Assembly: GCA_002707695.1 (NCBI GenBank)
Contig: PANR01000018.1
Coordinates: 1,865 to 65,864 of the forward strand
Source: Legionellaceae bacterium
GTDB taxonomy: Bacteria; Pseudomonadota; Gammaproteobacteria; UBA12402
Direction: 5' to 3'
DNA length: 64,000 bases
Shown here piece after piece: positions 5,796 to 21,987 of the stretch (the stretch's first letter is position 1; each line of letters starts with the position of its first letter). The notes under the pieces were generated by a model. The model was not told the origin of the DNA. It did not search any database and saw only the letters and a program-made list of their open reading frames with translations. The translations under genes and the position numbers were made by a program.

Positions 5796-6716
5796 CTACG
5801 TTTTCTCTACGACAGTTGCCGCCATCGACAACCCTACACCAAAACCACACAGTAAAAACCTATGGTATTTATTTTGCCTTATATAATCAGCCAGCAAGAT
5901 AGGAATAGTCGATGAAACCGTATTGCCATATTGTGCGGCTACAAATGGCATTTTTTTCTTATCCACCCCCATACGCTGGCAAACTTTGCTTAGCATATAA
6001 CGACTTGCTTGATGCATCAAATATAGATCAATATCGTTATCAGCACAATGATTTTTAGCCAAACATTTGGCAGCCAGCAGGGGTACTTCTCGCAGAGCAA
6101 AATTAAAAATTTCACGCCCATTCATATAAAGCGACTTACCAACTTCTTTAATCAACATCTTGTGGCCAGCACCTGCTGTCGCAAACACACCCTTTTTGAT
6201 TGATAGCAACGGATCGGATGTTAATACAGTGACTGACGCTCCATCTCCAAAGATCAACGCGGTATTTTTGTCATTTTCATCTAGTATGCTAGAATATGGA
6301 TCTGCAGTAAATAACAACCCACACTTCAAATCATTGGCTTCCATAAAATTTTTAGCGAGATGCAGTGAATACACATACCCTGAACAACCTAAATTAATAT
6401 CGAACGAAGCACAATCTTCGGAAATCCCCAGCTTATCCTGCACAATTGCTGCAGTATGTGGCAATCCATAATCTCCGTTCTGGGTACAGACACAAATAAA
6501 ATCGACTTTTGGTATAAGTTTTTCAGCATTCTCTAAGTGATTAAAAGCCCAAACACATAAGTCTGAAGTGCTGGAGTCAGCAGATTTCCTTGCTACTGCT
6601 GTGAAGCCTGTTTTATTGACGATAAACTCTTCGCTTACCTGATACTTTTCCTTAAGCTCTACATTGTTAACTTTCTCATTCGGAATATAGTAAGCAACAT
6701 CACAAATTCCTATCAT
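5796..6716 (-). CDS. 3-oxoacyl-ACP synthase III (FabH-like) paralog
   Basis: The 306-aa protein has the KAS-III catalytic Cys context (LGCSGYVYSL) and the C-terminal NTVSSTIP motif region. It is adjacent to the ACP. Confidence 0.8.
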   Translation of the reverse strand: MIGICDVAYYIPNEKVNNVELKEKYQVSEEFIVNKTGFTAVARKSADSSTSDLCVWAFNHLENAEKLIPKVDFICVCTQNGDYGLPHTAAIVQDKLGISEDCASFDINLGCSGYVYSLHLAKNFMEANDLKCGLLFTADPYSSILDENDKNTALIFGDGASVTVLTSDPLLSIKKGVFATAGAGHKMLIKEVGKSLYMNGREIFNFALREVPLLAAKCLAKNHCADNDIDLYLMHQASRYMLSKVCQRMGVDKKKMPFVAAQYGNTVSSTIPILLADYIRQNKYHRFLLCGFGVGLSMAATVVEKT

Positions 6717-7333
6717 GGCTTTCTCCTTGAGAAATATACCCAGCCCACGTTTATTTCATCGAGCATCACATTGGACTTTGAATCGTGGTCACCAAGCATT
6801 TTAGATAATTGCAAAACTAACTCCGCAACACCCAGCCGACCCTCAACCACGCTCCAATCCAATTTAATTCTCCTGCAGTACCATTTGCCATTTTTGCCCG
6901 GGCATGCGTTTGATAACAATGCCTTATTGAGTGATATGACTATATTGGCGAACTGTTTGATGCCAGAGACCGGCAATCTTATTGATCGACTGGCTGGATC
7001 ATAGTTAGCCTTGGCCACCAACCCATTCTCATCGTACTCCTTTCGAATCAACTCGCCTTGATCAGTAGAAATCAAAACAATTTTGTACTCCTCTTTGTCT
7101 GTAGTAACATTAAAAGAGGCAACAACATCATGCTTACTTTCATCGCCAGACTCATTCAACAGCAAATACTTTCCCTGTGAATACAAAGGCCGATGAATTT
7201 TTAGCTCATATGATCTGATCGAGCCCAAGCGCCAAAAGACACTGGCCTTAAATAACTGCTCAATCATGCTCGTTGCATGCACATAGTCTCTCTTGTCCAA
7301 TAACACAAACTCTGCATTAAAAATTTTTTGCAT
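6713..7333 (-). CDS. hypothetical protein (first gene of the glycan operon)
   Basis: The 206-aa ORF has no motif I recognise. Its stop overlaps the fabH-like start. Confidence 0.35.
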   Translation of the reverse strand: MQKIFNAEFVLLDKRDYVHATSMIEQLFKASVFWRLGSIRSYELKIHRPLYSQGKYLLLNESGDESKHDVVASFNVTTDKEEYKIVLISTDQGELIRKEYDENGLVAKANYDPASRSIRLPVSGIKQFANIVISLNKALLSNACPGKNGKWYCRRIKLDWSVVEGRLGVAELVLQLSKMLGDHDSKSNVMLDEINVGWVYFSRRKP

Positions 7334-7424
7334 ATCAACTTTTCATGTAAAAAAAATAGCCAAACAAAAAGGCGGTTGAACAGGGGTTAAAAGTACCATA
7401 GAATCACCGTACTTCTCAAAGGCC

Positions 7425-9491
7425 ATGGAGCATAATTTGGTGCGTAATTTTTCGTTGGTTACCAAACAAGCAAAGCCAAACTTACCAAAAATAACCAACC
7501 AGGCCAGACCTGATTTTGAACAAAAAACACGCTTCTGGCTTGCACTTTTTATTTTCTTTGCTGCTTTCTTCCTACGATTTGCCTACCTCCATCGCCAAGG
7601 CTTTTGGGATAGTGATGAATATTATTCATACCGCTTCATCGTTGCCTATTTGCTGCACCACAACCTTGATCCAGCTTCAGGGGGAGATATGTGGGGTAGA
7701 CCGTTTGGTTTTTTAACCTCATATTTCTTCATGAAACTTTTTGGCTTTACCCCTTTTTCTACCCACATCAAGAGCGCACTTTTTGGATTTCTCAGTATTG
7801 TTATTGGCTACATTGTCGGGGAGAGGCATCTGGGCAAAAATGCGGGATTATTTGCAGCCGCTCTAATGACAAGTTTGTATAGCCTGGTTTACTACTCACG
7901 CACAATGAAAATGACTGCACCCTCTATGTTATTTTGTGCTTTAGCAATCTGGATTTTATTTGAAATTATGAATACACCCGGCATACAAAAGCACGCTTTA
8001 TGCGGCCTCATGCTTGGTTTTATGATCACCACTCATCCTGCCACTATACCGATGGCTTTTTCTATTTTAATGCTATTAGGTATCGTCACGCTTATTAAAG
8101 AAAAAAACTTTAAAACCACCTATATTTACGGCCTACTCACCTTGCTTGGCCTTGCCATCCCGATAATAGGCTGCGAGTTATTTTATCTCCGAACAAAGCT
8201 TTTACCATGGTGGCACATGACGCGGCACGCTGATTACTTAAGCAATGTATTCTTTACCAGTGTTAATGGCGCCCAGCCCCAGTGGGAACACGCCAAACCC
8301 CATCTTTCATTTTTCCTGGGTGAAATTCGAAACAATGGAAAACCGCTTTTGTATGCCATTATTGCCGGACAACTATTTTCTGCGCTGAACTTAACAACTA
8401 AAAAAATGAAACCATTTTTACTCACTATCATGTTTTGGTTACCTGTATTAATTTACACGTATATTCTGCACACGACAGAGGCTGAACGAGACATCTTTAC
8501 CTCCCTATTCCCTGGATGCTTAGTTGTGGGCTATATGTTAGCGCGCATAATCAACCAACTCAAATCAACAGGCATACTTAAAGCAACGGCGCTAACAGCC
8601 ATAACAATCATTTTGTTAGCTTACGGCTTACCCAGAAGCTTTCCAATCATTAAAAACGCATCGGCTGCACAAAACATATATGACGTGATTGGTAATGAGC
8701 AAGCCTCTATGACTCGCCCCTCAACCAATACCGCTCAGTGGCAGCACTACTACTTCACCAATAACGCTCTCTTTGTGGATGGCTGGAACGATGTGTTAAC
8801 TAACTTTTTACTCAATCGGGCGAGCTATTTCATACAACTTACACCAGGCTGGACAAAAAAAACGAATTTCAGCAACACTGAAAAATTCGCGACGTCATAC
8901 AAAACAGCAAACAGCAACGGACGCTTTTCTACCACCTACCTGTACACGCCAAAACAACTTGAAACTATCTTTAAAAACAAATTTTCTCTGACAAAAATTA
9001 AAACCATTGACTTAAATACATTTTCCTCAGTTAAAGATATCCGAGGAAACAGCCCTCTAAATGAATTAATTTCAAAGAAAGGCAAGCAAGCCACCATTAC
9101 CATTCCGCTCAATGCCAACCTTTTAGTCGTTAGCGGAAAAATTGCTTTAAACCCTAGCATAGGAGAAAAGATTAACATCGCCATTGGTAATCACAACAAC
9201 CCAACTGCCTATGCTGTAAAATCGTTTTCTCCACGACAACGCAGCCTAATTTTACCAAACGAGAAAGCAACAAGTATATTTTGCGTGTGGAAATTATCCG
9301 GCAAACAACCCACTCAGCTAACACTCTCCGCTCTATTAAGCAAACATCTATCGTTATTAACCTTGCTGACAAATACGCAAGCAACATTTGATTATTTTTC
9401 AACGATAAGCAAAAAACAGATAAAAGCCTTTTCAGTTACCTTTTATCACATTCCAGAACAGTATCTACCGCAAAACATGCCGACCCTTTAA
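7425..9491 (+). CDS. GT-C fold glycosyltransferase (ArnT / PMT-like, GT39/GT83-type) with a C-terminal periplasmic domain; paralog 1
   Basis: The 688-aa polytopic N-terminal part carries the first-loop motif FWDSDEYYSY (compare ArnT WQPDETRYAE). It is a close paralog of 18889..20940. Confidence 0.6.
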   Translation: MEHNLVRNFSLVTKQAKPNLPKITNQARPDFEQKTRFWLALFIFFAAFFLRFAYLHRQGFWDSDEYYSYRFIVAYLLHHNLDPASGGDMWGRPFGFLTSYFFMKLFGFTPFSTHIKSALFGFLSIVIGYIVGERHLGKNAGLFAAALMTSLYSLVYYSRTMKMTAPSMLFCALAIWILFEIMNTPGIQKHALCGLMLGFMITTHPATIPMAFSILMLLGIVTLIKEKNFKTTYIYGLLTLLGLAIPIIGCELFYLRTKLLPWWHMTRHADYLSNVFFTSVNGAQPQWEHAKPHLSFFLGEIRNNGKPLLYAIIAGQLFSALNLTTKKMKPFLLTIMFWLPVLIYTYILHTTEAERDIFTSLFPGCLVVGYMLARIINQLKSTGILKATALTAITIILLAYGLPRSFPIIKNASAAQNIYDVIGNEQASMTRPSTNTAQWQHYYFTNNALFVDGWNDVLTNFLLNRASYFIQLTPGWTKKTNFSNTEKFATSYKTANSNGRFSTTYLYTPKQLETIFKNKFSLTKIKTIDLNTFSSVKDIRGNSPLNELISKKGKQATITIPLNANLLVVSGKIALNPSIGEKINIAIGNHNNPTAYAVKSFSPRQRSLILPNEKATSIFCVWKLSGKQPTQLTLSALLSKHLSLLTLLTNTQATFDYFSTISKKQIKAFSVTFYHIPEQYLPQNMPTL

Positions 9492-9493
9492 AA

Positions 9494-10291
9494 TTATCGG
9501 GAAAAATACGTTGCCCTCATACGTTCACTCATTGCGATAAAATTTGGATTTAACAATGATTCGGTTGTGTTATACTGTATTTCTGTTAGGTTATTTTCTC
9601 GCAACAACACCCCTCCCGCTTCACTTAAAACACAATGTGCAGCAGCGGTATCCCACTCTGATGTTGGTCCTAAACGAGGATAAATATCTGCCTTACCCTC
9701 TGCCACCAAACAAATTTTTAACGAGCTGCCCACATTAATTAACTCATATTGCTCAAATCTACTCAGCATTTTTTTCAATTGGTCGCTATTGCCATGCCGT
9801 CGACTCGCCACCACACGTACGCGTGTTGGCACTTCATGATTGGCTCGGATTTGAGTCACTTTTCCTTGCTCAACTTTATACGCCCCCCGCCCTTGCTCAG
9901 CGTAATACATCACATCAAGCGCTGGCGCATAAACGACACCCATAACTGGTCGATGATCTTCAATCAACGCGATATTAACGGTGAATTCGTCAGAACGATG
10001 GATGAATTCTTTTGTGCCATCGAGCGGATCAACAAGCCAATAACGATCCCATGCTTTTCTTTGATCCCAGGGCACTACGCTGGACTCTTCGGACAACACA
10101 GGCAATGCCGGCATTAAACGTTTGAGCCCTTCCACAATAATTTGATGTGCTGTCAAATCTGCTTGCGTTAATGGCGAGCCATCTTGTTTGGCAATCACTT
10201 CGAACGCTTCAGGGCTGCGATAAATATCTAACACTGCCTTGCCAGCATCCCGTGCAACCCGCACAACAGCATTCATCCACTCAGACCGCAT
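9494..10291 (-). CDS. cysQ: 3'(2'),5'-bisphosphate nucleotidase CysQ
   Basis: The protein has inositol monophosphatase family motifs (WLVDPLDGTKEF, DTAA). Confidence 0.8.
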   Translation of the reverse strand: MRSEWMNAVVRVARDAGKAVLDIYRSPEAFEVIAKQDGSPLTQADLTAHQIIVEGLKRLMPALPVLSEESSVVPWDQRKAWDRYWLVDPLDGTKEFIHRSDEFTVNIALIEDHRPVMGVVYAPALDVMYYAEQGRGAYKVEQGKVTQIRANHEVPTRVRVVASRRHGNSDQLKKMLSRFEQYELINVGSSLKICLVAEGKADIYPRLGPTSEWDTAAAHCVLSEAGGVLLRENNLTEIQYNTTESLLNPNFIAMSERMRATYFSR

Positions 10292-10436
10292 TTAACAACC
10301 CTCTTCATATTTTTTGACATATAAATGCTCAATTTCATGCGCATCAGCCAGCATCCTAGATGAATTATCCCTTGATTTCATCCTATAATTTTATCATAGT
10401 ACCTCAACTTCTAACTGCATTGATGGTACATAGGCA

Positions 10437-11438
10437 ATGGAAAATTTCTGGAAAAACAAGCGCGTCCTTATCACTGGCATCTGTGGCACCATTGGCCAAG
10501 AGCTATTGCGCCAACTACATGAAGCAGCGGTGTCTGAAATAGTAGGTATTGATAATAATGAAACAGGGCTTTTTTTCCTCAAACAAAAATATCAAACAAG
10601 CTCTCACATCACACTCGAGCTAGGCGATCTCAGAGACCGCGATAGGTTGATAAGCATAATGCGCGGCATTGATGTGGTATTACATGCAGCCGCCTTAAAG
10701 CACGTCGGCCTATGCGAGCAATCTCCTTCGGACGCTATTCAAACGAATATTTTAGGCACTCAAAACATTATTCAGGCCGCTATTCACAACAAAGTGGCTA
10801 GAGTGCTATACACCTCATCTGATAAAGCCGTCAACCCAACTAATGTAATGGGCACCTCAAAGCTAATGGGAGAGCGCCTCATTACAGCGGCCAACAATTT
10901 TGGCGATGGCAATACGGTATTTCTTTCAACACGATTTGGAAATGTGTTGGGGTCAAGAGGGTCGGTTATTCCACTTTTCAAAAAACAAATTGCCCAGGGA
11001 GGGCCTGTTACACTGACGCATCCTGACATGACACGCTTTATCATGACACTCTCTGAAGCCACAAAATTAGTGATTGACAGTGCCTTTCTTGGCAATGCCG
11101 GTGAAGTTATGGTGACTAAAATGCCAGCCATCAACATAAAAGATTTGGCTGAAATTATGGTTCGAGAGCTTGATCCGTCGGTGCAAATTAAGTTGATCGG
11201 TTCAAAGATTGGCGAAAAAATGTATGAAGAACTGGTTAACGAAGAAGAAGTTCGCCGAACGAGGGAAACCAATAATTATTTTATTATTGAACCTGCTTTT
11301 GCCGCTCAGCGAAGCAATGCGCCATCCATCCACTCTGCATACAATTCACAAAAAAGTAAAAAAATGTCCAGAGAAGATCTGCGAACCTATTTGAAAAAGA
11401 ATCAGCTTCTTCACGAACAAGAGGAAGTGATAGCATGA
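10437..11438 (+). CDS. short soluble CapD/PseB/WbpM-C-terminal-like UDP-sugar 4,6-dehydratase
   Basis: The 333-aa protein has a GxxGxxG start (ITGICGTIGQ) and the motif TSSDKAVNPTNVMGTSK with FGNVLGSRGSVIPLF. These are near-identical to the catalytic domain of the WbpM-like protein at 27889..29754. Confidence 0.75.
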   Translation: MENFWKNKRVLITGICGTIGQELLRQLHEAAVSEIVGIDNNETGLFFLKQKYQTSSHITLELGDLRDRDRLISIMRGIDVVLHAAALKHVGLCEQSPSDAIQTNILGTQNIIQAAIHNKVARVLYTSSDKAVNPTNVMGTSKLMGERLITAANNFGDGNTVFLSTRFGNVLGSRGSVIPLFKKQIAQGGPVTLTHPDMTRFIMTLSEATKLVIDSAFLGNAGEVMVTKMPAINIKDLAEIMVRELDPSVQIKLIGSKIGEKMYEELVNEEEVRRTRETNNYFIIEPAFAAQRSNAPSIHSAYNSQKSKKMSREDLRTYLKKNQLLHEQEEVIA

Positions 11439-12580
11439 ACGTTTTAATTCTTGGTGCCGACGGTTATCTTGGCTGGCCGACAGCAATGTTTTTTGCACAA
11501 CAGGGCCACAAAGTTTGCGCGGTTGATAACTATTTGCGGCGCAAGCTGGCCGCAGCGCATCAAGCCGAAGCACTTATCCCCACGCCAGATTTACAGAAGC
11601 GTGCTGAGATTTTTAAACGTCAAACTGGCAACGCAATTGAAACACACATTGTTGATTGCGCCGACTATGAACAACTATCCAGTCTTTTTCAATCGTTTAA
11701 GCCCGATGCAGTTATCCACTATGCCGAACAACCTTCTGCGCCTTTTTCTATGCTTGGGTTTAAAAACGCCTCCTTGACCCTAAATAATAATCTTAATACG
11801 ACATTCAATGTGATTTGGGCTGTCATGGAACATGCGCCTGACTGTCACATTATCAAACTTGGCACAATGGGCGAGTATGGCACGCCAAATATTGATATCG
11901 AAGAAGGCTGGCTGAACATCACGCACAATGGCCGCTCAGATAAATTTTTATATCCCAGACAAGCGGGCAGCCTCTACCACACAACAAAAGTGTTAGATAC
12001 GGATTTACTCTGGTTCTATGTTCGCAACAATAAATTGCGCGTTACTGACCTCATGCAAGGGCCTGTATATGGACTATCAACGCCTGAAACCGAGCTAGAT
12101 GATGAGCTCTTACCTAATTTTCACTACGATGATATATTTGGCACTGTCGTTAACCGATTTCTTGTGCAAGCAGTTGCCGGCATGCCATTGACCGTTTATG
12201 GAAGTGGCGGTCAGACGCGTGGTTACCTCAATTTAAATGATACGCTACAATGCGTTAAGTTGGCGGCTGATACGCCAGCAAAACCAGGTGAGTTACGAGT
12301 ATTTAACCAGCTTACCGAATTATTTAGCGTTAACCAACTGGCCGAGAAAATCAAAAATGTTGGAGATGGCCTGAACCTAAATGTACAAATAAAATCAATC
12401 ACCAACCCACGGAAAGAAAATGAAGACCACTATTATAATGTTAAGCATCACGGCCTTGCCGAGCTAGGCTTAAAACCACACCTCATGACAGATGAAGTTA
12501 TCAAAGGCATGTTAAACAAAGTGCTTAACTTCAAAGACAACATCGATGAGTCAAAAATTCTTCCCAAAATAAAATGGTAG
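11435..12580 (+). CDS. sqdB: UDP-sulfoquinovose synthase (SQD1 / SqdB / Agl3 family)
   Basis: The N-terminal motif LGADGYLGW matches the SQD1 GGDGYCGW, with DNYLRRK following. The stretch KLGTMGEYGTPNIDIEEGW..ITHNGRSD..YHTTKV matches the SQD1 active-site region as I recall it. The protein is 381 aa. Confidence 0.8.
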   Translation: MNVLILGADGYLGWPTAMFFAQQGHKVCAVDNYLRRKLAAAHQAEALIPTPDLQKRAEIFKRQTGNAIETHIVDCADYEQLSSLFQSFKPDAVIHYAEQPSAPFSMLGFKNASLTLNNNLNTTFNVIWAVMEHAPDCHIIKLGTMGEYGTPNIDIEEGWLNITHNGRSDKFLYPRQAGSLYHTTKVLDTDLLWFYVRNNKLRVTDLMQGPVYGLSTPETELDDELLPNFHYDDIFGTVVNRFLVQAVAGMPLTVYGSGGQTRGYLNLNDTLQCVKLAADTPAKPGELRVFNQLTELFSVNQLAEKIKNVGDGLNLNVQIKSITNPRKENEDHYYNVKHHGLAELGLKPHLMTDEVIKGMLNKVLNFKDNIDESKILPKIKW

Positions 12581-12593
12581 CTGTGTCAAACCT

Positions 12594-13574
12594 ATGATAA
12601 CTGCTAAACAGATTGTTAAAAAAAACTTAGCAAAATTATTTATTTCTCTATTGATCACCCTATTTTTAGGTGGCTTCATCGTACAGTATACCAACTTTGA
12701 AAAGTTTTTAGCAACTTTCCAAAATATTCACTGGTTTTATTTTTTGTTATCTATTGGCCTCTTCATTCTTTATCAATATATTAGACGGCTTAGGTTTCAA
12801 CTGTTAATTAACGCCAGCTGCAATCAATTACATCTTTTGAATACACAATGCATTCATTCTGCCGCAAGAAATATTTTACCCATTGGCTTAGGCGAAGCTG
12901 CATTTGTTTACTTAATGAAACGTTTTTATCGATGCAGTTATCACGAAACCACAGCTGCTATTATTATTGCAAAAATGTTAGACCTATTAATTTTGCTCTT
13001 TCTATCAACCGCATTCGTTGTGTTTCTTTCCGCAACTTTCCAAAAAAACATAATTATTGCCTTATTTGGGCTGTTGTTATTATTACTAATCTCATCAGCT
13101 GGTATTTTTTTGTTGTTACGCATCGAAAGAAACAGGCGGCTGAAGAAAAAAGATTTCAAAAACTCTTTTTTGAGCAGAAACTTAACGTTACTTGCGTCTT
13201 CCATCAGAACCGTTATAAAAAAGGGCATGAGCTACAAACTTGGCGTTTATTCAATAGCCATGATCACGGTAATGTATTTCTTTTATGTCTCTTTGTTCCA
13301 TACGCTAGGGCTCAACCTTAAATGGCATGTAACGGCAATTGCCTACTTAGTTGCTGGCGGCATTGGCTTACTACCCATAAAAGGACTTGCAAATATTGGT
13401 ACATTTGAGGCCCCCTGGTTTATCGTGTTAACCAGCTTTAATCTATCGACAGAAAAGGCCGCTATTGCTAGTTTTGGTGTACACATTTTGTTATTTGTTA
13501 GTGTATTTATTTCGCTGATAATTTCAACAAGCTTACTCATTATTTCAAAGAACCTACATAAACCACTTCAGTGA
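12594..13574 (+). CDS. flippase-like polytopic membrane protein (UPF0104 / LPG-synthase-TM-type)
   Basis: The 326-aa protein has about 8 TM segments. It is arranged directly upstream of a GtrB-like GT2, as in lipid-linked glycosylation modules. Confidence 0.5.
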   Translation: MITAKQIVKKNLAKLFISLLITLFLGGFIVQYTNFEKFLATFQNIHWFYFLLSIGLFILYQYIRRLRFQLLINASCNQLHLLNTQCIHSAARNILPIGLGEAAFVYLMKRFYRCSYHETTAAIIIAKMLDLLILLFLSTAFVVFLSATFQKNIIIALFGLLLLLLISSAGIFLLLRIERNRRLKKKDFKNSFLSRNLTLLASSIRTVIKKGMSYKLGVYSIAMITVMYFFYVSLFHTLGLNLKWHVTAIAYLVAGGIGLLPIKGLANIGTFEAPWFIVLTSFNLSTEKAAIASFGVHILLFVSVFISLIISTSLLIISKNLHKPLQ

Positions 13575-13667
13575 GTGCAGCAGAACTCTGCACAACAACA
13601 TCCCAGTCAAAGCATACATAAAGACTCCTAGATCAGGTAGCCTAACAGCGAGCTTTTATGCTACAGT

Positions 13668-14729
13668 ATGCCTACTATGAGCTCATTCTCACTGCTACGA
13701 ACATCTGGGTTAATTCTAGGCCTCGTTTTTCTAGTCGCCTTATTCAAAACGCTGCGCAGCACCCCTGGCCGGCGCATGTATGTTAATACTTTTTTCTTGT
13801 TGGGCTCCGGACTCATTCTTGTCTCCCTGTTTCCAAATATTATAAATTCTCCCGCTGCCTTTTTCTCACTATCGAACGTTAAAGGCGGGCGCATTATTAC
13901 TTTACTCATCGTCGCTAACATCGCCTTATTACTATTTGCACTATATATAAATAAAAGAACTTACCAGATAAAATCTCAAATCAACCAATTTATCGAAAAA
14001 GTTGTGAGCAGTGAGACATCAAAAAATGCTTCAAACGAGAATTTATCTGAATTCATTGTAGTATTAATCCCCGCATATAACGAAGCAGAAAATTTAAAAA
14101 TGTTGCTGCCTAAAATACCCAGCTCTATTCATGGAAAAATTGTAAAGGCTCTAATTGTTGATGATGGTAGCTCTGACAGTACTGGCATAGTTGCCGAAGC
14201 AAATAACGCCATTCTTATTAAGCACCCATTCAACCGCGGAGGCGGCGCAGCACTAAGAACCGGTTACCAATTTGCAAAACAAAATCATGCGACCATCATC
14301 GTTACAATGGATGCTGATGGTCAACACGACCCGCGAGAGCTTGTGAACCTGACCACTCCTCTTCTTGAAAAGAAGGCGGACTTTGTTATCGGATCAAGAA
14401 CGCTTGGCTCATTTGACAGCTACTCACGAACCAGGATTCTTGGCTTATACTTTTTTAACTTCCTTCTCACCGTGCTGATGGGAATCAAAGTCACCGACTG
14501 TTCTAGTGGCTACAGGGCATTAAACTTATCTGCGCTTAGTCAAATTAGACTGCGCCAAGATCAATACCACACTGCCGAATTAATTATTGATGCGGCAAAA
14601 AATGGGGTCAAGATACTCGACGTCCCTATTCATGTCTCGCCACGCTACAGCGGTGAAAGCAAAAAAGGACACAATCTCTTTTATGCTTTCCGATTTTTAC
14701 GAACCATATTAACTTCTTGGTGGGCGTAA
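13668..14729 (+). CDS. GT2 polyprenyl-phosphate sugar synthase (DPM1/ArnC/GtrB-like) with an N-terminal TM region
   Basis: The protein has the motifs VLIPAYNE, DDGSSD and TMDADGQHDP (DxD) after two N-terminal TM helices. Confidence 0.7.
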   Translation: MPTMSSFSLLRTSGLILGLVFLVALFKTLRSTPGRRMYVNTFFLLGSGLILVSLFPNIINSPAAFFSLSNVKGGRIITLLIVANIALLLFALYINKRTYQIKSQINQFIEKVVSSETSKNASNENLSEFIVVLIPAYNEAENLKMLLPKIPSSIHGKIVKALIVDDGSSDSTGIVAEANNAILIKHPFNRGGGAALRTGYQFAKQNHATIIVTMDADGQHDPRELVNLTTPLLEKKADFVIGSRTLGSFDSYSRTRILGLYFFNFLLTVLMGIKVTDCSSGYRALNLSALSQIRLRQDQYHTAELIIDAAKNGVKILDVPIHVSPRYSGESKKGHNLFYAFRFLRTILTSWWA

Positions 14730-14759
14730 TCGTTGCTCGCACGATCGCATGAGCAATTC

Positions 14760-15911
14760 TTAAAGGTAACCAATATGCTCAAGCTTTAGCAGTATTTTTT
14801 GCACAGCCTCATCCGGCAAACAATTCGCCGCGTCAATAGCAAGCTCCGGGCTTGTTGGCACTTCATAAGGATCATCAATCCCAGTGAAATTTTTTATCTC
14901 ACCTTCACGGGCTTTTTTATACAGGCCTTTCCGGTCGCGCTGTTCACACACCTCCAAGCTGGTTGACACGTATATCTCAACATAACCTGCGCCATGCTGA
15001 TCAACCAACTTCCTGACGTCTGCTCTCGCTTCTTCGTAGGGGGCAATAGGCGCACAAATAGCAACGCCACCGTGTTTGGCAATCTCACTTGCAACAAAAC
15101 CAATACGTCTAACATTGATGTTACGGTCCTCCTTAGAAAAACCTAAACCCTTTGATAACGCTTGTTTACGTATCAAGTCGCCATCAAGCAGCGTCACAGC
15201 ACGACCGCCTATTTCTAATAATTTAATCATCAATGCATTAGCGATGGTTGATTTCCCAGCACCTGACAAACCAGTAAAAAACACTACAAAACCTTGCTTA
15301 GATTTAGGAGGATGTGTTTTACGCAACTCATCGATAATTTCTGGATAAGAAAACCATGCAGGCACTTCTATACCATCACGCAAACGACGCCTAAATTCGG
15401 TGCCTGATATTGTTAGAACGGTTTCACCACCGCTTAATTTATCTTTTGGCAAGTACTGCCCTTTTTCTTCAACGTAAACTACCTCTTGAAAAGGAATCAT
15501 TTCAATACCAATCTCACCTTCATACCGCCTTATTAAATCTTGCGCATCATAAGGACCATAAAAATCTTGCCCTTGAGAATTTTTTCCAGGACCCGCGTGA
15601 TCACGCCCAACGATGAAATGAGTGCAACCATAATTTTTGCGAATGATTGCATGCCACAATGCCTCGCGCGGCCCAGCCATGCGCATCGCGAGCGGCAACA
15701 AGCTCAACATAGTTGTTTGCTCAGGATATCGCTGAAGCATTTTTTCATAGCAACGAACACGGGTGTAATGATCTATGTCGCCGGGCTTGGTCATACCAAC
15801 CACAGGATGAATCAATAAATTAGCCTCATTATCTTTAGCAGCTCTCAACGTAAGCTCTTGATGCGCACGGTGCATTGGGTTGCGCGTTTGAAACGCAACA
15901 ATTTTTTCCAA
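14760..15911 (-). CDS. sat/cysC: ATP sulfurylase catalytic domain fused to APS kinase (Sat-CysC); the C-terminal portion of a frameshifted gene
   Basis: The ATP sulfurylase motifs are VAFQTRNPMHRAH and GRDHAGPG. The APS kinase P-loop is FFTGLSGAGKST. The gene continues from 15845..16468 in another frame. Confidence 0.75.
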   Translation of the reverse strand: MEKIVAFQTRNPMHRAHQELTLRAAKDNEANLLIHPVVGMTKPGDIDHYTRVRCYEKMLQRYPEQTTMLSLLPLAMRMAGPREALWHAIIRKNYGCTHFIVGRDHAGPGKNSQGQDFYGPYDAQDLIRRYEGEIGIEMIPFQEVVYVEEKGQYLPKDKLSGGETVLTISGTEFRRRLRDGIEVPAWFSYPEIIDELRKTHPPKSKQGFVVFFTGLSGAGKSTIANALMIKLLEIGGRAVTLLDGDLIRKQALSKGLGFSKEDRNINVRRIGFVASEIAKHGGVAICAPIAPYEEARADVRKLVDQHGAGYVEIYVSTSLEVCEQRDRKGLYKKAREGEIKNFTGIDDPYEVPTSPELAIDAANCLPDEAVQKILLKLEHIGYL

Positions 15912-16468
15912 CCTAACTTTTGGAACTGCGCCTTAAGCTCTGCGGGGGTGTGACGCAAATGCCGAAAATCGTAGTGCGTAGGTACAGCCGCTTTTTTAAG
16001 CTTACCACCCACATAATATTCACCCGCATGCTTGTGCAAATAACAAACAGCCGGATGTGCCATGTCATCCGCGCCAAAAACCGCCTTGGCCTCTAACGAT
16101 TTATCAGGCCGCCAGATATCGGTCACAGTTAAAATGGCAACCAACATTCCTTCTGGATCCCTTAGCGCAATTTCTGCCCCGCACTTGACTGATTGAGCAA
16201 ATAACCTCGACACATCGAGCGTAATCGGCATGGGCCAAAGTGTGCCATTTTGTAGACGCATACTGGCAAGAACGCTTTGATAATCTGCTTGAGACATGAA
16301 CCCATTCAACGGCGCAAAGCCTCCATTAATAAGTAATTCAAGATCACAAAGTTGTCGGGGTGCAAGAGACCATTCAAGCATAGCCGCTTCTTTTTGGTCA
16401 TTAGTTTGCTTTAGACCCAACATTAAATCAGATATTTTTTCATCAAATGGTGTAATTTCTTCACCCAT
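15845..16468 (-). CDS. sat: ATP sulfurylase N-terminal (PUA-like) domain; the N-terminal portion of the frameshifted sat-cysC
   Basis: The fragment ends ..FQKLGWKK exactly where sulfurylases continue ..VVAFQTRNP. The frames switch at an A6 run (T6 at 15902-15907 on the + strand). Confidence 0.7.
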   Translation of the reverse strand: MGEEITPFDEKISDLMLGLKQTNDQKEAAMLEWSLAPRQLCDLELLINGGFAPLNGFMSQADYQSVLASMRLQNGTLWPMPITLDVSRLFAQSVKCGAEIALRDPEGMLVAILTVTDIWRPDKSLEAKAVFGADDMAHPAVCYLHKHAGEYYVGGKLKKAAVPTHYDFRHLRHTPAELKAQFQKLGWKKLLRFKRATQCTVRIKSLR

Positions 16469-16730
16469 CTCTCACCTCACACATGAAACCATAGCAAACA
16501 TAAGTTGCTTCCAACTAACGTTTACTTTGTCTCGCATAGTAAACTAATCAGGACTTGACTTCATCATCGGCCAGTCAATTTAATAAAAAGTAAAATATGA
16601 TTTAACCACCCATTTTCTTATTCCCCAACCATTTCAGAAATTTCACCAGCACTTTTATTGCTCTAAGCTTGCAAATCAATTACTATTTGCTCAAATCCCC
16701 TGTCAACTAGAGCAAGAAGGATAGCAAAAC

Positions 16731-16979
16731 TTGATAAAACCAACAGATGCAAGGCGACGAAGCTTTCTCAAAGCCTTGAGCTGGCGATGCTTGGCTACAC
16801 TCACAACTTTTCTTATCAGTTATGTCGTAACGGGCAACTTTGCTTTTGCTGCCTCTATCGGTGGCCTTGAAGTCATTGCAAAAATTATTCTGTATTACTT
16901 TCATGAAAGAGCGTGGAATCAAGCCAGATTTTGGCAACATGTAAAACAACCAGATGAGCCTGCAGCGGATGCAAAATAG
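16731..16979 (+). CDS. DUF2061-like small membrane protein
   Basis: The 82-aa protein has two TM helices and a WRCLATLTTFLISYVVTG...YYFHERAW pattern. It is typically found beside APS/PAPS reductase genes. Confidence 0.55.
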   Translation: MIKPTDARRRSFLKALSWRCLATLTTFLISYVVTGNFAFAASIGGLEVIAKIILYYFHERAWNQARFWQHVKQPDEPAADAK

Positions 16980-17712
16980 CCCTCGATTTGCTAGCCCTGA
17001 TAGCCTAGAAATTCAGACAAAAAAATTAGAGACTTTTACGCCGCAAGAAATTCTGGCTTGGGCCTGGAATGAATACGCACCTCGAGTAAAAGTTGCCACC
17101 GGCTTTGGCGCCGAGGGCATGGTTTTAATTCACATGCTTGCCGAAATCGCGCCTCAAATATCTGTGTTTAATTTAGACACTGGTTATCAATTTCCTGAAA
17201 GCCTGTCACTCAAAGAAGCCGTTAAAAAACGCTATGGTATTGATATCAAACTTGTGCAGCCAGAAACTTCCGTAACAGACTATGAAAAAATTCATGGTGG
17301 CCCTGTTTATTTAACCGACGCAAATCAATGCTGTCATGATAGAAAAGTAACTGTCTTAAAAAAAGCACTGCAAGGAACCTCTGCCTGGCTAACTGCGATT
17401 AGGCGAGACCAGAGCCCAACCCGATCTAATGTGCCCATTTTGGGCTGGGATAAACAATTTAACCTTGTCAAAATCAACCCACTCGCCAACTGGAACAAGC
17501 ATGACGTATGGGCATTTATAAAAAAATACAACATTCCCTACAACCCCTTATATGATCAAGGCTATACCAGCATTGGGTGCTGGCCTTGCACAAAAAAACC
17601 CAATAATAGTGACGAACGATCCGGACGGTGGTCAGGGAGCGAGAAAACTGAATGTGGCATTCACCACCCAAACTTGAAAATCAATTCAACTCACTCACTA
17701 AAGTCTCAATAA
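16954..17712 (+). CDS. cysH: phosphoadenosine phosphosulfate (PAPS) reductase CysH
   Basis: The protein has the PP-loop region and the C-terminal KTECGIH active-site Cys motif. Confidence 0.85.
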   Translation: MSLQRMQNSPRFASPDSLEIQTKKLETFTPQEILAWAWNEYAPRVKVATGFGAEGMVLIHMLAEIAPQISVFNLDTGYQFPESLSLKEAVKKRYGIDIKLVQPETSVTDYEKIHGGPVYLTDANQCCHDRKVTVLKKALQGTSAWLTAIRRDQSPTRSNVPILGWDKQFNLVKINPLANWNKHDVWAFIKKYNIPYNPLYDQGYTSIGCWPCTKKPNNSDERSGRWSGSEKTECGIHHPNLKINSTHSLKSQ

Positions 17713-18772
17713 TTAGATCCTGCTGACTCGCATTAATATATGGATGCATCGGCAAACTTAGCACTTGACCTGACAATTCTTCAGAGGTGAAAAGCTTGTC
17801 AGAACAAATGATTTGTTCTTTGTAAGCAGGCTGTTTATGTAGAGGCTCAGGATAATGCACAATACTCGGAATTCCCTGTTTTTTTAAAGCGAGCATCGCG
17901 CTATCTCTATCCTCAAGTCTGATGACGTACTGCGCATACACACTTCTGCCAAATGCTTCCACGAAAGGTAATTGAATGTTTGTACCCAATCCTGTATTAT
18001 AACGATCAGCCACTTGTTGTCGCAACTCAATTTCTTCCGGAAAAATTTTTAATTTTTCTAATAAAATTGCGGCCTGAATGGTATCTAATCGAGAATTCAT
18101 TCCCACCCTAACATGCTGATACTTTTGCGCTTGGCCATGCACATGAATCTGCTTCATTCTTTCAGCTAACTCATCATCATCGGTAAAGCAGGCACCACCA
18201 TCACCATAACATCCAAGCGGTTTTGCAGGGAAAAAACTTGTTGTCGCAATCGTCGACAAATGGCAAGATCGCCGCCCCTTATATGTTGCCCCCATGCTTT
18301 GTGCAGCATCTTCGATAACCGGCAAATTGTGCTTCTTCGCGATTTGATTAATCGCATCAAAATCGCAGCACTGACCAAACAAATTCACAGGGACAATTGC
18401 TTTTGTTTTGGATGTGATAGCCGATTCCAGTTTAGACACATCTAGATTGAATGTTCTCTCATCGACATCAACCAACACGGGTGTGGCTCCCAAGAAAACA
18501 ATCATTTCAAGAGCAGCAATGTAGGAAAAAGCGGGGGCAATCACTTCATCGCCAGGGCCAATATCAAGCGCCATCATGGCAATCAGCAAAGCATCAGTAC
18601 CGTTGGCTACTGCGATACAATGCCGACTGTCAACAAATTGAGACAACGCTTCTTCAAGCTGCATCACCTCAGGACCCATGATATATTTCCCATGATCCAA
18701 TACTCTTTTAATGGCAGATTCTATTGGTTGTCTAATTTTTTTTTGTTGTGCTTCAATATCAATAAACTTCAC
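17681..18772 (-). CDS. DegT/DnrJ/EryC1-family PLP sugar aminotransferase (ArnB/WecE-like)
   Basis: The 363-aa protein has the family N-terminal pattern (GKYIMGPEV..LE..) and a conserved Lys region. Confidence 0.8.
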   Translation of the reverse strand: MKFIDIEAQQKKIRQPIESAIKRVLDHGKYIMGPEVMQLEEALSQFVDSRHCIAVANGTDALLIAMMALDIGPGDEVIAPAFSYIAALEMIVFLGATPVLVDVDERTFNLDVSKLESAITSKTKAIVPVNLFGQCCDFDAINQIAKKHNLPVIEDAAQSMGATYKGRRSCHLSTIATTSFFPAKPLGCYGDGGACFTDDDELAERMKQIHVHGQAQKYQHVRVGMNSRLDTIQAAILLEKLKIFPEEIELRQQVADRYNTGLGTNIQLPFVEAFGRSVYAQYVIRLEDRDSAMLALKKQGIPSIVHYPEPLHKQPAYKEQIICSDKLFTSEELSGQVLSLPMHPYINASQQDLIIETLVSELN

Positions 18773-18888
18773 ACCCTTCCCCTCCGCCTATAACCCACTG
18801 ACCCATACACCAGGTTGCAACAGGAATTGAATACGCTCTAAAAGTATCATAGAATCAGCTCCTCGACAAAGGGCGGGGGCATAAATTA

Positions 18889-20940
18889 ATGCAAATTTTA
18901 AGAGCAACTGGTGATAAAATAAAAACTGCGCTTTTGAAAACATTCCATGCCTATACTCAGCTTAATTCTGAACAAAAAACGCGTCTAACCCTTGCGCTCT
19001 TGATTTTTTTTACTGGATTTTTCCTCAGATTTGCCTACCTGAAGTATCAAGGCTTTTGGGACAGTGATGAATATGCGTCATATGCAGCCATGATGGGACA
19101 AATTCTTCAAGGAGACTTGTCTCATTTTTTGGGTGGCAATATGTGGGGGAGACCTTTTGGGTTCTTAACCTCGTATTTTTTCATGAAAATCTTCGGCTTC
19201 ACCCCTTACGCAATTCACATTAAAAGCGCACTACTTGGATTTTGTACCATTGTAATAGGCTACATCATTGGGGAGAAACACTTGTGTAAAAATGCTGGGT
19301 TATTTGCAGCAGCATTAATAGCGAGTTCGTATGAGCTTGTTTACTACTCACGCACAATGAAAATGACAGCCCCGTCTATGTTTTTCTGCGCACTGGCAAT
19401 ATGGATTTTATTTGAAATCATAGACAACCCCGGCACCCAGCGGCATGCTTTGTGCGGACTGATGTTAGGTTTTATGCTCACCACACACCCTGCGACCATC
19501 CCCATGACAGCAACTATCTTACTTATGCTTGCCATTGTAACAATCGCAAAGGAAAAAAAAATTGGGCAATCGCTAAACTATGGTCTTCTCACCTTGCTAG
19601 GCCTCCTCACCCCCATCATTGGCTGTGAATTGTTTTACCTTAGCGCAAAAATTTTGCCATGGTGGCATACCGCACCCAACATAGATTACATGAAATTTTT
19701 ATTCTTCTACAACCAACATGGGCCAGCTAACCTACAACATGTAAAACCTCATATTTCTTCTTTTCTCGGTGAAATAACAAATAACGGTAAAGCTCTCTTG
19801 TATCTTATAGGGGCTGGGCAGGCAATTTCCCTGATTGCTTTGCTTAAAGGAAAAATTAAACCCTTTTTACTCAGCATGATATTTTGGCTGCCGATTTTAA
19901 TCTACACCTATATCCTGCACCCTGTAGTGGCTGAACGCAATATTTTTACATCTCTATTTCCGGGCTGCTTGATTGGGGGGTATTTTTTTGCATACCTCAT
20001 TAATCAGACCAAACTAACATCGTTCCTTAAATCTTTCGCCATAGCAATCACATCATTCGCGCTCCTGACCTATGGAATTCCCAAAAGCCTTCCTATCATC
20101 AAAAATGCATCGGCCGCACAGAACATATATGATTATATTGGCAGCCAACAGGCCTCTATGACCCGCCCCTCCAAAAGCGTATATCAGTGGGAACATTACT
20201 ACTTCACAAACAGTTCGCTTTCCGTTGACAATTGGAGTGATGTGTTAAAAAATTTTCTACTGAACCGAGCTAATTATCTCATCCAACTCACCCCCTCCTG
20301 GACAAACGCTACTGGCTTTGAAGACACACAAAAATATGCAACTCAATTTAGGACGGCAGAGAGTCATGGTGGATTTTCTGTTTACTATCTCTACAATCCA
20401 AAACAGCTCGAAAAAATTTTGAAAGATAAATTTTCTCTGACAAAAATCAAATCAATTAATCTAAAAAGATTTTCTTCACTGACTGGCATACAAAAAAGTC
20501 AAAGCAACAAATATATGTTTGAAAAAAAAGCAAAGCAAATTATTATTAACATCCCAACTGACGCCAACCTCCTAGCAATTAGTGGGAGAATTCCCCTTAA
20601 TCCCGATATCGGAGAAAGTATTAATATTGCAATTGGAAACAAAAGCAAACCCACTCTGTACACCTTAAAATCTTTTTCTCCTCATGAAAACGGGGCGTTA
20701 TTACCCAACGAGAAAGAAACTAACATTTTTTATGTCTGGGAACTAGCTGGTAAAAAACTCACTCAACTGACTCTGTCCCCCTTGCTGACCAAGCGTTTAT
20801 CGCTGCGCGCTTTGCTGAGAAACTTTCCAGAAGCATTTGCCTATTTTTTTGCAACTGACAAAAAACAAATAAAAGGCTTTTCTGTCACCTTCTATCACAT
20901 CCCTAACAAATATCTACCAAAAAATATGCCGTCGATTTAA
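18889..20940 (+). CDS. GT-C fold glycosyltransferase (ArnT/PMT-like); paralog 2
   Basis: The 683-aa protein has the motif FWDSDEYASY. It is collinear and highly similar to 7425..9491 (for example GGNMWGRPFGFLTSYFFMK and SAAQNIYD). Confidence 0.6.
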   Translation: MQILRATGDKIKTALLKTFHAYTQLNSEQKTRLTLALLIFFTGFFLRFAYLKYQGFWDSDEYASYAAMMGQILQGDLSHFLGGNMWGRPFGFLTSYFFMKIFGFTPYAIHIKSALLGFCTIVIGYIIGEKHLCKNAGLFAAALIASSYELVYYSRTMKMTAPSMFFCALAIWILFEIIDNPGTQRHALCGLMLGFMLTTHPATIPMTATILLMLAIVTIAKEKKIGQSLNYGLLTLLGLLTPIIGCELFYLSAKILPWWHTAPNIDYMKFLFFYNQHGPANLQHVKPHISSFLGEITNNGKALLYLIGAGQAISLIALLKGKIKPFLLSMIFWLPILIYTYILHPVVAERNIFTSLFPGCLIGGYFFAYLINQTKLTSFLKSFAIAITSFALLTYGIPKSLPIIKNASAAQNIYDYIGSQQASMTRPSKSVYQWEHYYFTNSSLSVDNWSDVLKNFLLNRANYLIQLTPSWTNATGFEDTQKYATQFRTAESHGGFSVYYLYNPKQLEKILKDKFSLTKIKSINLKRFSSLTGIQKSQSNKYMFEKKAKQIIINIPTDANLLAISGRIPLNPDIGESINIAIGNKSKPTLYTLKSFSPHENGALLPNEKETNIFYVWELAGKKLTQLTLSPLLTKRLSLRALLRNFPEAFAYFFATDKKQIKGFSVTFYHIPNKYLPKNMPSI

Positions 20941-21000: not shown

Positions 21001-21987
21001 TCATTCTTCCCAGCTCGACTCACACCTAGTGTCTCGAGATGAGTCCATGTCAAACCACATAGCAAAAAATAAAGACTGGAAGCCTGAAATAACTAAAAAA
21101 GCTGCAAACAATGCTGAGGTTGCTGCAACAGAATGGCCAAGCAGTCTTGTCACAACGAGAACCAAACCAAACACTGAGCCCAGTGGCAACACAACAATAG
21201 ATAATAAATAAAACAATACTAGCGGATGAAAATCACGAATGATATATTTTTCCTTCATCCGCCAAAAAAAACATTTGAACAATATGATTGATAGTGACCA
21301 TGTTGCGGAAAAAAGCCCAATACTAGAAACCTCACCGACACCATAAACCGGCTTTGTATGAATATCGCATACACGAAACTGATGTATATTAAGCGCTACT
21401 AACACTATATTTGGCAACCCGTAGCGACGATACAGTTTTTCCAATTTAACTGCTTTAAGTGCACGTAACGATATCGCAGTATAACCATTTTGGGGATCAC
21501 CCACATGCCAATACCCAGATGCAATTTTGGTCAAAAAAGATAAAATGGCGCTGCCCAAATATCGACCCTTGGGAAAATCATCTCGCGCACCTTCAATAAG
21601 CAGCCTATTTCCTTTTGTATAATCCGCTTTGTTAGCAACAATTGGCTCAATATAACGGTGTAGCTGCTCAGGGTCCATCTGCGCATCACCTGCCATTACA
21701 GCTGTCACCTCCATATTGTTATCTCTTGCCCATCGATATCCTGTTGCTACCGCCCCACCAGGCCCTGCATTCTTTTTATGTTCGATTAAAACAAGACGAT
21801 CCGCATATGATTTTTTAATTTTCTTGACGACTGCAACAGTATCATCTTTACTCTTATCATCAACCACAACCATTCGGTCAACATAATCGGGCATCGTTGT
21901 TATCACTTTTTCAATTTGGCGAGCTTCATTGTAGGCCGGAATGACAACACAGATTGACTTGCCTTTAAACATGTTTATGATCTCCAA
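21001..21987 (-). CDS. GT2 polyprenyl-phosphate glycosyltransferase (GtrB/ArnC-like) with two C-terminal TM helices
   Basis: The protein has the motifs VVIPAYNE, DDKSKDDT and MAGDAQMDP, plus a C-terminal hydrophobic hairpin. Confidence 0.75.
   Translation of the reverse strand: MEIINMFKGKSICVVIPAYNEARQIEKVITTMPDYVDRMVVVDDKSKDDTVAVVKKIKKSYADRLVLIEHKKNAGPGGAVATGYRWARDNNMEVTAVMAGDAQMDPEQLHRYIEPIVANKADYTKGNRLLIEGARDDFPKGRYLGSAILSFLTKIASGYWHVGDPQNGYTAISLRALKAVKLEKLYRRYGLPNIVLVALNIHQFRVCDIHTKPVYGVGEVSSIGLFSATWSLSIILFKCFFWRMKEKYIIRDFHPLVLFYLLSIVVLPLGSVFGLVLVVTRLLGHSVAATSALFAAFLVISGFQSLFFAMWFDMDSSRDTRCESSWEE

Follow-up and report, generated by a model that had tools for sequence, protein, structure and literature searches.

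A putative lipid-carrier glycosylation cassette for a C6-sulfonated sugar in the O-antigen-type locus of a marine Legionellaceae bacterium

Sulfoquinovose (SQ) and other C-sulfonated sugars of its type are currently viewed as components of phototroph sulfolipids and of a few archaeal N-glycans. In a 2026 review SQ figures as a product of phototrophs, a 2025 preprint describes sulfofucose as a sugar without a known biosynthetic pathway and lists only algal and archaeal occurrences, and reviews of 2025-2026 name neither a bacterial surface-glycan source nor a biosynthetic route to other sulfosugars. SQD1 and Agl3 share the signature [ST]MG...Yx3K (Thr145/Tyr182/Lys186) (PMC8987622). Sugars are also added to glycans by three-component systems, among them GtrA/GtrB/GtrC (O-antigen glucosylation), CsbB/GtcA/YfhO, PpgS/Rv3779, ORF15/14/12 of C. 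youngae and the archaeal AglD/AglR/AglS (PMC11127046). A 64-kb stretch of the Legionellaceae contig PANR01000018.1 (hereafter the window) holds a block in which the two themes meet: an SQD1-family enzyme (hereafter SqdB) and a partner dehydratase, genes for sulfate activation and reduction, a GT2 glycosyltransferase, a membrane protein of the LPG_synthase_TM family and two GT-C-type transferases. This block probably encodes a three-component, lipid-carrier system for the decoration of an envelope glycan, the cargo of which would be a C6-sulfonated 6-deoxy sugar made with a local supply of sulfite. Full-text literature searches returned no report of SQ or another C6-sulfonated sugar in bacterial lipopolysaccharide (LPS) or polysaccharide, or on undecaprenyl carriers. 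New here is the combination of an SQD1-family enzyme with three-component glycosylation, a route undescribed for sulfosugars, and related gene sets occur in many phyla.

The window is 100% identical to part of a 103-kb Tara Oceans scaffold from a marine, uncultured organism, binned at NCBI as 'Legionellaceae bacterium', in which the SQD1-family protein (MAZ77373.1) is annotated only as an 'NAD-dependent dehydratase'. Genes were called as open reading frames (ORFs) of the window and assigned by Pfam and NCBIfam profile scans and by PDB sequence searches, with a scan for GT4 glycosyltransferases on ORFs of at least 150 aa. A sequence-only reading had proposed a sulfosugar cassette here; the genes that it listed are present at the positions it gave and their family assignments hold in these scans (Table 1).

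In the proposed route, Sat would convert sulfate to adenosine 5'-phosphosulfate (APS) and the Fe-S-type CysH would reduce APS, or 3'-phosphoadenosine 5'-phosphosulfate (PAPS), to sulfite, with the CysC domain and CysQ handling PAPS and 3'-phosphoadenosine 5'-phosphate (PAP). A Pen/CapE-like short-chain dehydrogenase/reductase (SDR), translationally coupled to the SQD1-family enzyme, would then turn a UDP-hexose or UDP-N-acetylhexosamine (UDP-HexNAc) and sulfite into a UDP-sulfosugar. The product would be UDP-sulfoquinovose or, with equal or somewhat greater likelihood, one of its derivatives, for example UDP-6-sulfo-6-deoxy-HexNAc; for the latter, the dehydratase-type partner would supply or rework a 4-keto/5,6-ene intermediate. 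The membrane-anchored GT2 would load the sugar on undecaprenyl phosphate (Und-P), the LPG_synthase_TM protein would flip the lipid-linked sugar, and the two PMT_2-type GT-C paralogs would attach it, on the periplasmic side, at two acceptor sites, most likely in the O-antigen or core of the surrounding locus.

The window SqdB is a full-length extended SDR, aligned over residues 2-381 with Arabidopsis SQD1 (PDB 1qrr) at 49% identity. Its N-terminal NAD motif is GADGYLGW (GxxGxxG) and not the GGDGYCGW read earlier, while the second motif of that reading, GTMGEYGTPNIDIEEG, is present. The enzyme keeps H95, T144-M145-G146-E147-Y148, S179, Y181-H182 and K185. In Agl3, mutation of the matching residues (including Glu147/Tyr148 and His95) inactivates or impairs the enzyme, and R101A is inactive (PMC4388408). 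The proposed SQD1/SqdB assignment is upheld by the length, the 1qrr match and the catalytic residues, but the enzyme departs from the canonical form: Arg101 (EQRSAP) is replaced by Pro100 (EQPSAP) and Asp267 by Asn266. All 120 best homologs of the window SqdB have EQP, and all 120 best homologs of a Chloroflexi-type SqdB, which adjoins a GT4 gene in its own locus (L079), have EQR. A comparison of 193 non-Arg with 124 Arg sequences leaves just two positions that separate the groups strictly, Pro100/Arg101 and Asn266/Asp267, suggesting the loss of an Arg-Asp pair. As judged from these alignments, the window SqdB is noncanonical, a member of a large clade without Arg101 and Asp267 and, within it, of a derived subclade. 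The equivalog model for UDP-sulfoquinovose synthase (NF041015, cutoff 575 bits) gave 448 bits for the window SqdB and was dropped as a test because Arabidopsis SQD1 itself, at 483 bits, scores below the cutoff. The SqdX, SQD2 or SqdD partner that serves as a criterion for UDP-sulfoquinovose synthases was not found in the window scan; the earlier claim that an sqdX/sqdD-type GT4 is missing agrees with the lack of any GT4 (sqdX/SQD2-like, Glycos_transf_1) among the ORFs scanned over the 64 kb. In a Candidatus Acidiferrales metagenome-assembled genome (MAG), an Arg-type SqdB lies directly downstream of a PMT/PMT_2 GT-C gene (L065:129-3438), so the link to GT-C may not be confined to the Arg-less clade.

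The partner dehydratase carries the motifs SDK...MGTSK and its stop codon overlaps the SqdB start (11435). Its best PDB matches are 6bwc (254 bits), which we take to be Pen, the UDP-GlcNAc 5,6-dehydratase of B. thuringiensis, followed by 4j2o (WbjB, 219), CapE 3vvb (210), PseB 2gn4 (194) and PglF/WlaL 5bjw (192). It scores below the cutoffs of both PseB (TIGR03589, 267 bits against 408) and FnlA (237 bits). All 45 partner orthologs examined have [ST]DK and MxxxK, with Met in place of the Tyr of [ST]DK...Yx3K.

The association was followed in 80 genome loci retrieved by SqdB patterns, 75 of the non-Arg and five of the Arg type. Of the 75 non-Arg loci, 48 encode a close homolog of the window dehydratase no more than 4 kb from SqdB, mostly directly upstream, on the same strand and with a gap of a few bases; none of the five Arg-type loci does. 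The SqdB-anchored loci come from Gamma-, Alpha- and Deltaproteobacteria, Planctomycetota, Chloroflexota, Bacteroidota, Verrucomicrobiota, Nitrospirota, Myxococcota, Spirochaetales and others. Pairing is mirrored in the enzyme: 45 of the 48 paired SqdBs have YHTTK, the unpaired non-Arg proteins and SQD1 have YHLSK, and the Arg-type proteins mostly have YHLSK. About 12 further substitutions are specific to the paired proteins (e.g., DLNQGV to DLMQGP), and at these positions the unpaired clade agrees with SQD1. On this pattern, the paired SqdBs are a derived subclade with what appears to be a remodelled pocket, and the dehydratase-SqdB pair is a conserved and, by its covarying residues, co-evolving unit. 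In four operons (L031, L033, L043 and L045) the pair is the only set of nucleotide-sugar enzymes. From this gene arrangement we infer that the two proteins act in one pathway, the product of which may not be plain UDP-sulfoquinovose. Both enzyme families make or use a 4-keto-5,6-ene, so that addition of sulfite to a UDP-HexNAc-derived ene would be chemically sensible and would give UDP-6-sulfo-6-deoxy-HexNAc. Hence the N-acetylated sulfo-6-deoxy-hexosamine, which the sequence-only reading had offered as an alternative product, gains weight from the conserved, co-evolving pair.

The stricter proposition that every Arg-less SqdB needs a dehydratase was rejected: a large unpaired Arg-less clade has SQD1-like pocket residues and still adjoins GT2/GT-C genes. 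Apparent long fused ORFs in high-GC loci (e.g., L019) were likewise discarded as antisense or alternate-frame shadows and are no gene fusions. In about 25 loci the pair is followed by a GalE-like epimerase-type SDR of about 330 aa (e.g., L002:9551-10501, L011:10997-11968, L021, L046 and L049), which could yield the C4 epimer, a sulfofucose-type sugar. In five unrelated lineages, Ferrovibrio, two Saccharibacteria and two Alphaproteobacteria, an Arg-less SqdB stands in a same-strand run with NeuB-, NeuC- and CMP-nonulosonic-acid-synthetase-like genes (L027:8955-13342, L058:2257-8750, L073:8055-12319, L060:3784-11179 and L053:7061-11143). These runs hint at a sulfonated nonulosonic acid and suggest that the SqdBs concerned may act on UDP-HexNAc.

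The reciprocal test used 80 metagenome loci retrieved by the GT2 subfamily alone, 27 of which are at least 12 kb long. An SQD1-family gene is present in 18 of these 27 long loci, a PMT_2-like GT-C also in 18 and an LPG_synthase_TM gene in seven (13 of the 80 loci of all lengths). All 32 SqdBs in the GT2-anchored loci lack Arg101 and Asp267. Near-replicas of the cassette read dehydratase-SqdB-GT2...LPG_synthase_TM-GT-C-GT-C (L104), GT2-LPG_synthase_TM-dehydratase-SqdB (L108) and GT2...GT-C-dehydratase-SqdB (L094), and a large group, probably of actinobacterial type, combines SqdB, one or more GT-Cs and GT2. The module is repeated in the genome loci L045 (PMT_2 with TPR), L029 (PMT_2), L043 (LPG_synthase_TM) and L066 (YfhO-type GT-C), and the LPG_synthase_TM family adjoins the GT2 subfamily in L043 and L045. 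This recurrence of SqdB with GT2 and GT-C across phyla is the main evidence for polyprenyl-phosphate loading of the sugar and its transfer outside the cytoplasm. The central idea of the sequence-only reading, in which a sulfosugar donor feeds a polyprenyl-phosphate GT2 and the sugar is flipped and passed to a GT-C, is supported by it.

In the window, the dehydratase, SqdB, LPG_synthase_TM and GT2 genes form one same-strand run, with gaps of 13 and 93 nts. Promoter and terminator scans of 7000-22200 gave the same counts as shuffled sequence and were left out of the operon calls. The GT2 subfamily is conserved in its N-terminal membrane domain and in a C-terminal SKKG...WW tail. PpgS (E = 2.5e-25), AglJ (8.5e-25) and a Dol-P-hexose transferase are its top NCBIfam matches, with ArnC at 3.6e-10, all below their equivalog cutoffs, and its nearest solved relatives in the PDB are DPMS (5mlz), ArnC (9hwj/9bhc/8vxh) and GtrB (5ekp). 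The LPG_synthase_TM protein, for which the PDB sequence search gave no match, also reaches 30.7 bits with TIGR00374, below the cutoff; it is, by analogy, a candidate flippase of the lipid-linked sugar. The cassette is bracketed by the two GT-C paralogs, as proposed earlier, both above the PMT_2 gathering score and 64% identical to each other in protein sequence. Paralog 1 has a polytopic N-terminal half, a beta-rich C-terminal domain and the motif WDSDEY after the first transmembrane (TM) helix; WDSDEY is invariant in the GT-C alignment, and the GT-Cs have about seven or more hydrophobic segments. A word-indexed homolog search with paralog 1 returned itself, one relative at 52% identity (P0253), which likewise adjoins CysQ and Sat-CysC genes, and one fragment; no match was found in the PDB sequence search and no relative in a metagenome scan with GT-C patterns. 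The two genes are in direct orientation with about 75% DNA identity over 7513-8054 and 18965-19506, an arrangement by which the entire block could be more readily deleted or duplicated. In locus L110, three GT-C genes stand in a row.

The sulfate module encodes all four functions expected of it (ATP sulfurylase, APS kinase, sulfonucleotide reductase and PAP phosphatase), but Sat-CysC, presented in the sequence-only reading as the source of PAPS, is not intact. It is split into two overlapping ORFs by a one-base, -1-type frameshift in an A6 run (15902-15907), with the PRK05537 profile divided between them (residues 8-197 and 191-570). Addition of one A to the run restores a single ORF of 569 aa reading GWKKIVAFQTRNPMH. 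The repaired protein keeps all the Sat and APS-kinase motifs (QTRNPMH, GRDHAG, the P-loop GLSGAGKS and DGDLIR, i.e., DGDxxR) and is collinear with an intact gene in another locus (L013). The closest relative, on contig P0253, is intact at 561 aa, and relatives range from 561 to 581 aa. The A6 state occurs in both public contigs of the scaffold that cover the site (L086 and L087), one of which has a coverage of about 3x; it reflects either a lesion, recent or phase-variable, or a low-coverage error common to both contigs.

The cysteines of CysH are arranged as QCCH...GCWPCT...ECGIH. Bacterial APS reductases have this arrangement, CC...CxxC with ECGIH, as their Fe-S cysteine motif. PAPS is consequently not necessarily the substrate: sulfite can arise from APS directly, and the chain of PAPS, PAP and CysQ is not required for it. 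The earlier claim that CysH turns PAPS into sulfite and PAP stands for the enzyme family but not for the obligatory intermediate. A gene for a small DUF2061 membrane protein, called in the identical scaffold, overlaps the cysH start with its end and is also found near cysH in the relative's contig; its product may accompany the sulfite module as a conserved partner. Profile scans of the window ORFs found no sulfite reductase, and no sulfotransferase was found in the window. Of the 80 SqdB-anchored genome loci, eight have a CysH gene and four a Sat-CysC gene no more than 10 kb from the SqdB homolog, a linkage far above the expectation for single-copy genes. Legionella pneumophila is auxotrophic for cysteine and is not known to assimilate sulfate, and by analogy a dedicated sulfite module would fit such a background.

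The closest relative, recovered from one Joint Genome Institute (JGI) sample, has an SqdB 81% and a GT-C 52% identical to those of the window. The gene order on its contigs is GT-C, CysQ, intact Sat-CysC, dehydratase, SqdB, sulfotransferase, LPG_synthase_TM and GT2, with DUF2061 and CysH further on. The sulfotransferase (Sulfotransfer_1; contig P0001 of JGI 3300072015, genes 1655-2560), which lies between SqdB and LPG_synthase_TM and is absent from the window, would draw on the PAPS that CysC produces, a hint that this strain carries out O-sulfation as well.

The setting in an LPS locus claimed by the sequence-only reading is borne out by O-antigen-type genes clustered around the cassette: a Wzx-like flippase, Wzz, a WbpM-like dehydratase and WbpA/B/D/E-like genes. 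Housekeeping genes (GltX, TamAB, YhdP, MreBC and GatAB) lie beyond this locus. The same locus holds, at 143-7333 on the minus strand, AglZ/HisF2-WbuY and HisH-like acetamidino genes, a VimE-like deacetylase (DUF7033) and a pair of a FabH-like ketosynthase and an acyl carrier protein (ACP), together with two proteins of 384 and 206 aa that match no family. This gene set suggests that the glycan also contains a diamino-uronic acid, N-acylated or amidinated. A 689-aa protein (33080-35149, plus strand) joins a DedA-family region (15-190) to a PAP2/undecaprenyl-diphosphatase-like region (253-430) and, near a locus that uses lipid carriers, may be a fused protein for recycling or flipping Und-P. Downstream of cysH, a DegT/PseC-like aminotransferase gene could serve either the sulfosugar or a different sugar made by the locus; a DegT gene adjoins the dehydratase-SqdB pair in L001, L029, L035, L048 and L022. 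The second GT2 of the window is possibly a polyprenyl-phosphate sugar synthase, and its link to the cassette is uncertain; a gene like it in size and position adjoins LPG_synthase_TM in the relative's contig.

Table 1. Genes of the cassette and its immediate neighbours (positions in the window)
Feature	Position	Strand	Supporting match or remark
GT-C paralog 1, 688 aa, PMT_2	7425..9491	+	PMT_2 59.6 bits vs cutoff 26.1
CysQ, 3'(2'),5'-bisphosphate nucleotidase (PAP removal)	9494..10291	-	TIGR01331 313.9 bits vs cutoff 228.8
Pen/CapE/PseB-like, UDP-HexNAc C4-oxidising dehydratase-type SDR, 333 aa	10437..11438	+	Polysacc_synt_2 319 bits
SQD1/SqdB-family putative sulfosugar synthase, 381 aa	11435..12580	+	PDB 1qrr E = 6e-127; non-Arg clade, YHTTK subclade
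LPG_synthase_TM / 'flippase-like domain' membrane protein, 326 aa, ~7 TM	12594..13574	+	PF03706 86 bits vs 33.4
Polyprenyl-phosphate sugar synthase-type GT2, 353 aa	13668..14729	+	GT2 80 bits; N-terminal membrane domain, DXD (DAD)
Sat-CysC, bifunctional ATP sulfurylase / APS kinase	14760..16468	-	two overlapping ORFs, 15845-16468 and 14760-15911
Small DUF2061 membrane protein	16731..16979	+	PF09834 on called gene in identical scaffold L086
CysH-family sulfonucleotide reductase	16954..17712	+	PAPS_reduct 173 bits; NF002537 261 bits vs cutoff 154
DegT/PseC-like sugar aminotransferase	17681..18772	-	DegT 385 bits; PseC 246 and ArnB 219 bits, both sub-cutoff
GT-C paralog 2, 683 aa, PMT_2	18889..20940	+	PMT_2 56.8 bits
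Second GT2, 328 aa, N-terminal GT2 domain and hydrophobic segments	21001..21987	-	GT2 81 bits; AglJ 8e-18, PpgS 7e-14

Several observations weigh against the proposed route. The flippase candidate is assigned by family-level analogy only, and the GT-C assignment is a Pfam match, an AlphaFold2 model of paralog 1 from a four-sequence alignment being unusable (pLDDT 47). In the relative's contig, LPG_synthase_TM is followed by the other of the two GT2 types, and the cassette's GT2 subfamily is not found at the corresponding position. Furthermore, most SqdB-anchored loci (about 60 of 80), including dehydratase-SqdB pairs in polysaccharide clusters, are without the GT2 subfamily, LPG_synthase_TM or GT-C, so that the sulfosugar is probably incorporated in the cytoplasm more often than by this route. 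Five GT2-LPG_synthase_TM-GT-C triads (L106, L107, L110, L111 and L147) have no SqdB within 10 kb; either their sugar genes lie elsewhere or the triad can carry another sugar. These distributions, and the presence of a second GT2 in the window, would be expected if a cytoplasmic Leloir glycosyltransferase built the UDP-sulfosugar into the O-unit and the GT2, LPG_synthase_TM and GT-C proteins carried another sugar as mere neighbours. Such an arrangement is unlikely in view of the tightly spaced same-strand run from dehydratase to GT2 and of the linkage of the GT2 subfamily to SqdB in long loci that were picked without reference to SqdB.

Because Sat-CysC is frameshifted in all the assemblies examined, this population may not make sulfite from sulfate at this locus, and the block might be a decaying remnant of a pathway that has been switched off. 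The identity of the A6 deletion in both contigs, which are independent, and the intact genes of relatives are consistent with decay. However, all Sat and CysC motifs survive apart from the one indel, no other gene of the block is disrupted, the A run would permit low-level -1 slippage or phase variation, one contig is of low coverage, and sulfite or APS could have another source; decay is distinctly unlikely on this balance. The replacement of Arg101, which is essential in Agl3 (PMC4388408), together with that of Asp267, means that the chemistry of the window SqdB could differ. The enzyme might add no sulfite and act as a 5,6-dehydratase, an epimerase or with another nucleophile, in which case the sulfate genes would serve a sulfotransferase or general sulfur needs; the PAPS-type sulfotransferase of the relative and the use of PAPS implied by the CysC and CysQ genes point the same way. 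This is very unlikely given that the remaining SQD1/Agl3 catalytic residues are invariant, that CysH, a producer of sulfite and not of PAPS, recurs beside non-Arg SqdBs at about 10% of loci, and that the window scan found no sulfotransferase. Ordinary sulfolipid (sulfoquinovosyl diacylglycerol, SQDG) synthesis with an sqdX or sqdD gene elsewhere in the genome would agree with the family of the enzyme, and the GT4 scan is confined to the 64-kb window. It is nevertheless highly improbable: it is the Arg-type SqdBs that are related to Chloroflexi-type proteins, one of which adjoins a GT4, whereas the clade of the window SqdB is partnered by dehydratase, GT2 and GT-C genes in glycan loci, and no GT4 was found in the 64 kb.

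The three-component reading with a sulfonated cargo can be taken further, more tentatively, by joining its two halves: the dehydratase-like SDR and the Arg-less SQD1 homolog may form a two-enzyme route to an undescribed nucleotide sugar, and this sugar may be the cargo of a widespread Und-P/GT-C system. The candidate sugar is UDP-2-acetamido-2,6-dideoxy-6-sulfo-hexose, formed from sulfite and a UDP-HexNAc 4-keto/5,6-ene. The cargo would be this sugar, or SQ in the unpaired clade, carried by an MprF-type flippase domain in loci from Legionellaceae to, probably, Actinomycetota; sister cassettes may feed NeuC/NeuB towards sulfonated nonulosonic acids. If the proposed system is real, heterotrophs of many phyla would bear permanently anionic, phosphate-free sulfonates on their envelopes, a property of relevance to phosphate-poor oceans and to interactions with phages, complement and cationic peptides, and would supply organosulfonates to the marine sulfur cycle from a source so far overlooked. 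A further class of cargo and a further candidate flippase family would be added to the three-component systems, and in the SQD1 family Arg101/Asp267 and YHLSK versus YHTTK would become a specificity switch open to testing. The question is directly testable, since the dehydratase-SqdB pair has cultured carriers, for example Roseovarius nitratireducens TFZ (L018) and Histidinibacterium aquaticum (L036).

Among known enzymes, SQD1 (Arabidopsis), SqdB (cyanobacteria and Rhodobacter) and Agl3 (Sulfolobus) belong to the same extended-SDR family as the window enzyme and have in common with it GxxGxxG, TMG...YHxxK, E147/Y148 and His95; a sulfite-producing CysH near the window SqdB adds to the likeness. 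The window enzyme differs from them in Pro for Arg101, Asn for Asp267 and a YHTTK and DLMQGP pocket, in its obligate-looking Pen/CapE-like SDR partner and in its place in a glycan locus, not in lipid synthesis, without SqdX, SQD2 or SqdD. The partner SDR resembles Pen/Pal, PseB, CapE/FnlA/WbjB and PglF as a Polysacc_synt_2 protein with the pattern [ST]DK...(M/Y)xxxK and 6bwc as its best match. Unlike these, it reaches none of the equivalog cutoffs, groups in a clade of its own that is fixed beside an SQD1-family SDR and often stands without the aminotransferase or reductase that would complete a 6-deoxy-HexNAc pathway.

The logic of an Und-P-sugar synthase, a flippase and a GT-C is shared with the Arn pathway (ArnC, ArnE-F and ArnT), and ArnC ranks with the closest PDB matches of the GT2. 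The analogy to 4-amino-4-deoxy-L-arabinose (Ara4N) modification of lipid A drawn in the sequence-only reading does not extend to membership, which was rejected: the GT2 scores 39 bits with ArnC (NF007986) against a cutoff of 529, the DegT protein 219 bits with the ArnB model (NF008658) against 631, ArnA, ArnB and ArnD were not found in the window, and the GT-Cs match PMT_2 only, with no ArnT sequence match in the PDB. There is no evidence here for lipid A as the acceptor. The three-component systems are the closer parallel. In them, as here, a DPM1/GtrB-like GT2, a flippase, in this case a candidate, and a GT-C are encoded in a polysaccharide locus. The proposed cargo sets the window cassette apart, being sulfonated, and no sulf- word occurs in the main text of the 2024 PNAS paper on these systems (PMC11127046). 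The membrane domain of the window GT2 is N-terminal whereas theirs is C-terminal, the protein proposed as flippase belongs to the LPG_synthase_TM (MprF flippase-like) family and not to GtrA, SMR, MATE or Wzx, and two GT-C paralogs are present here.

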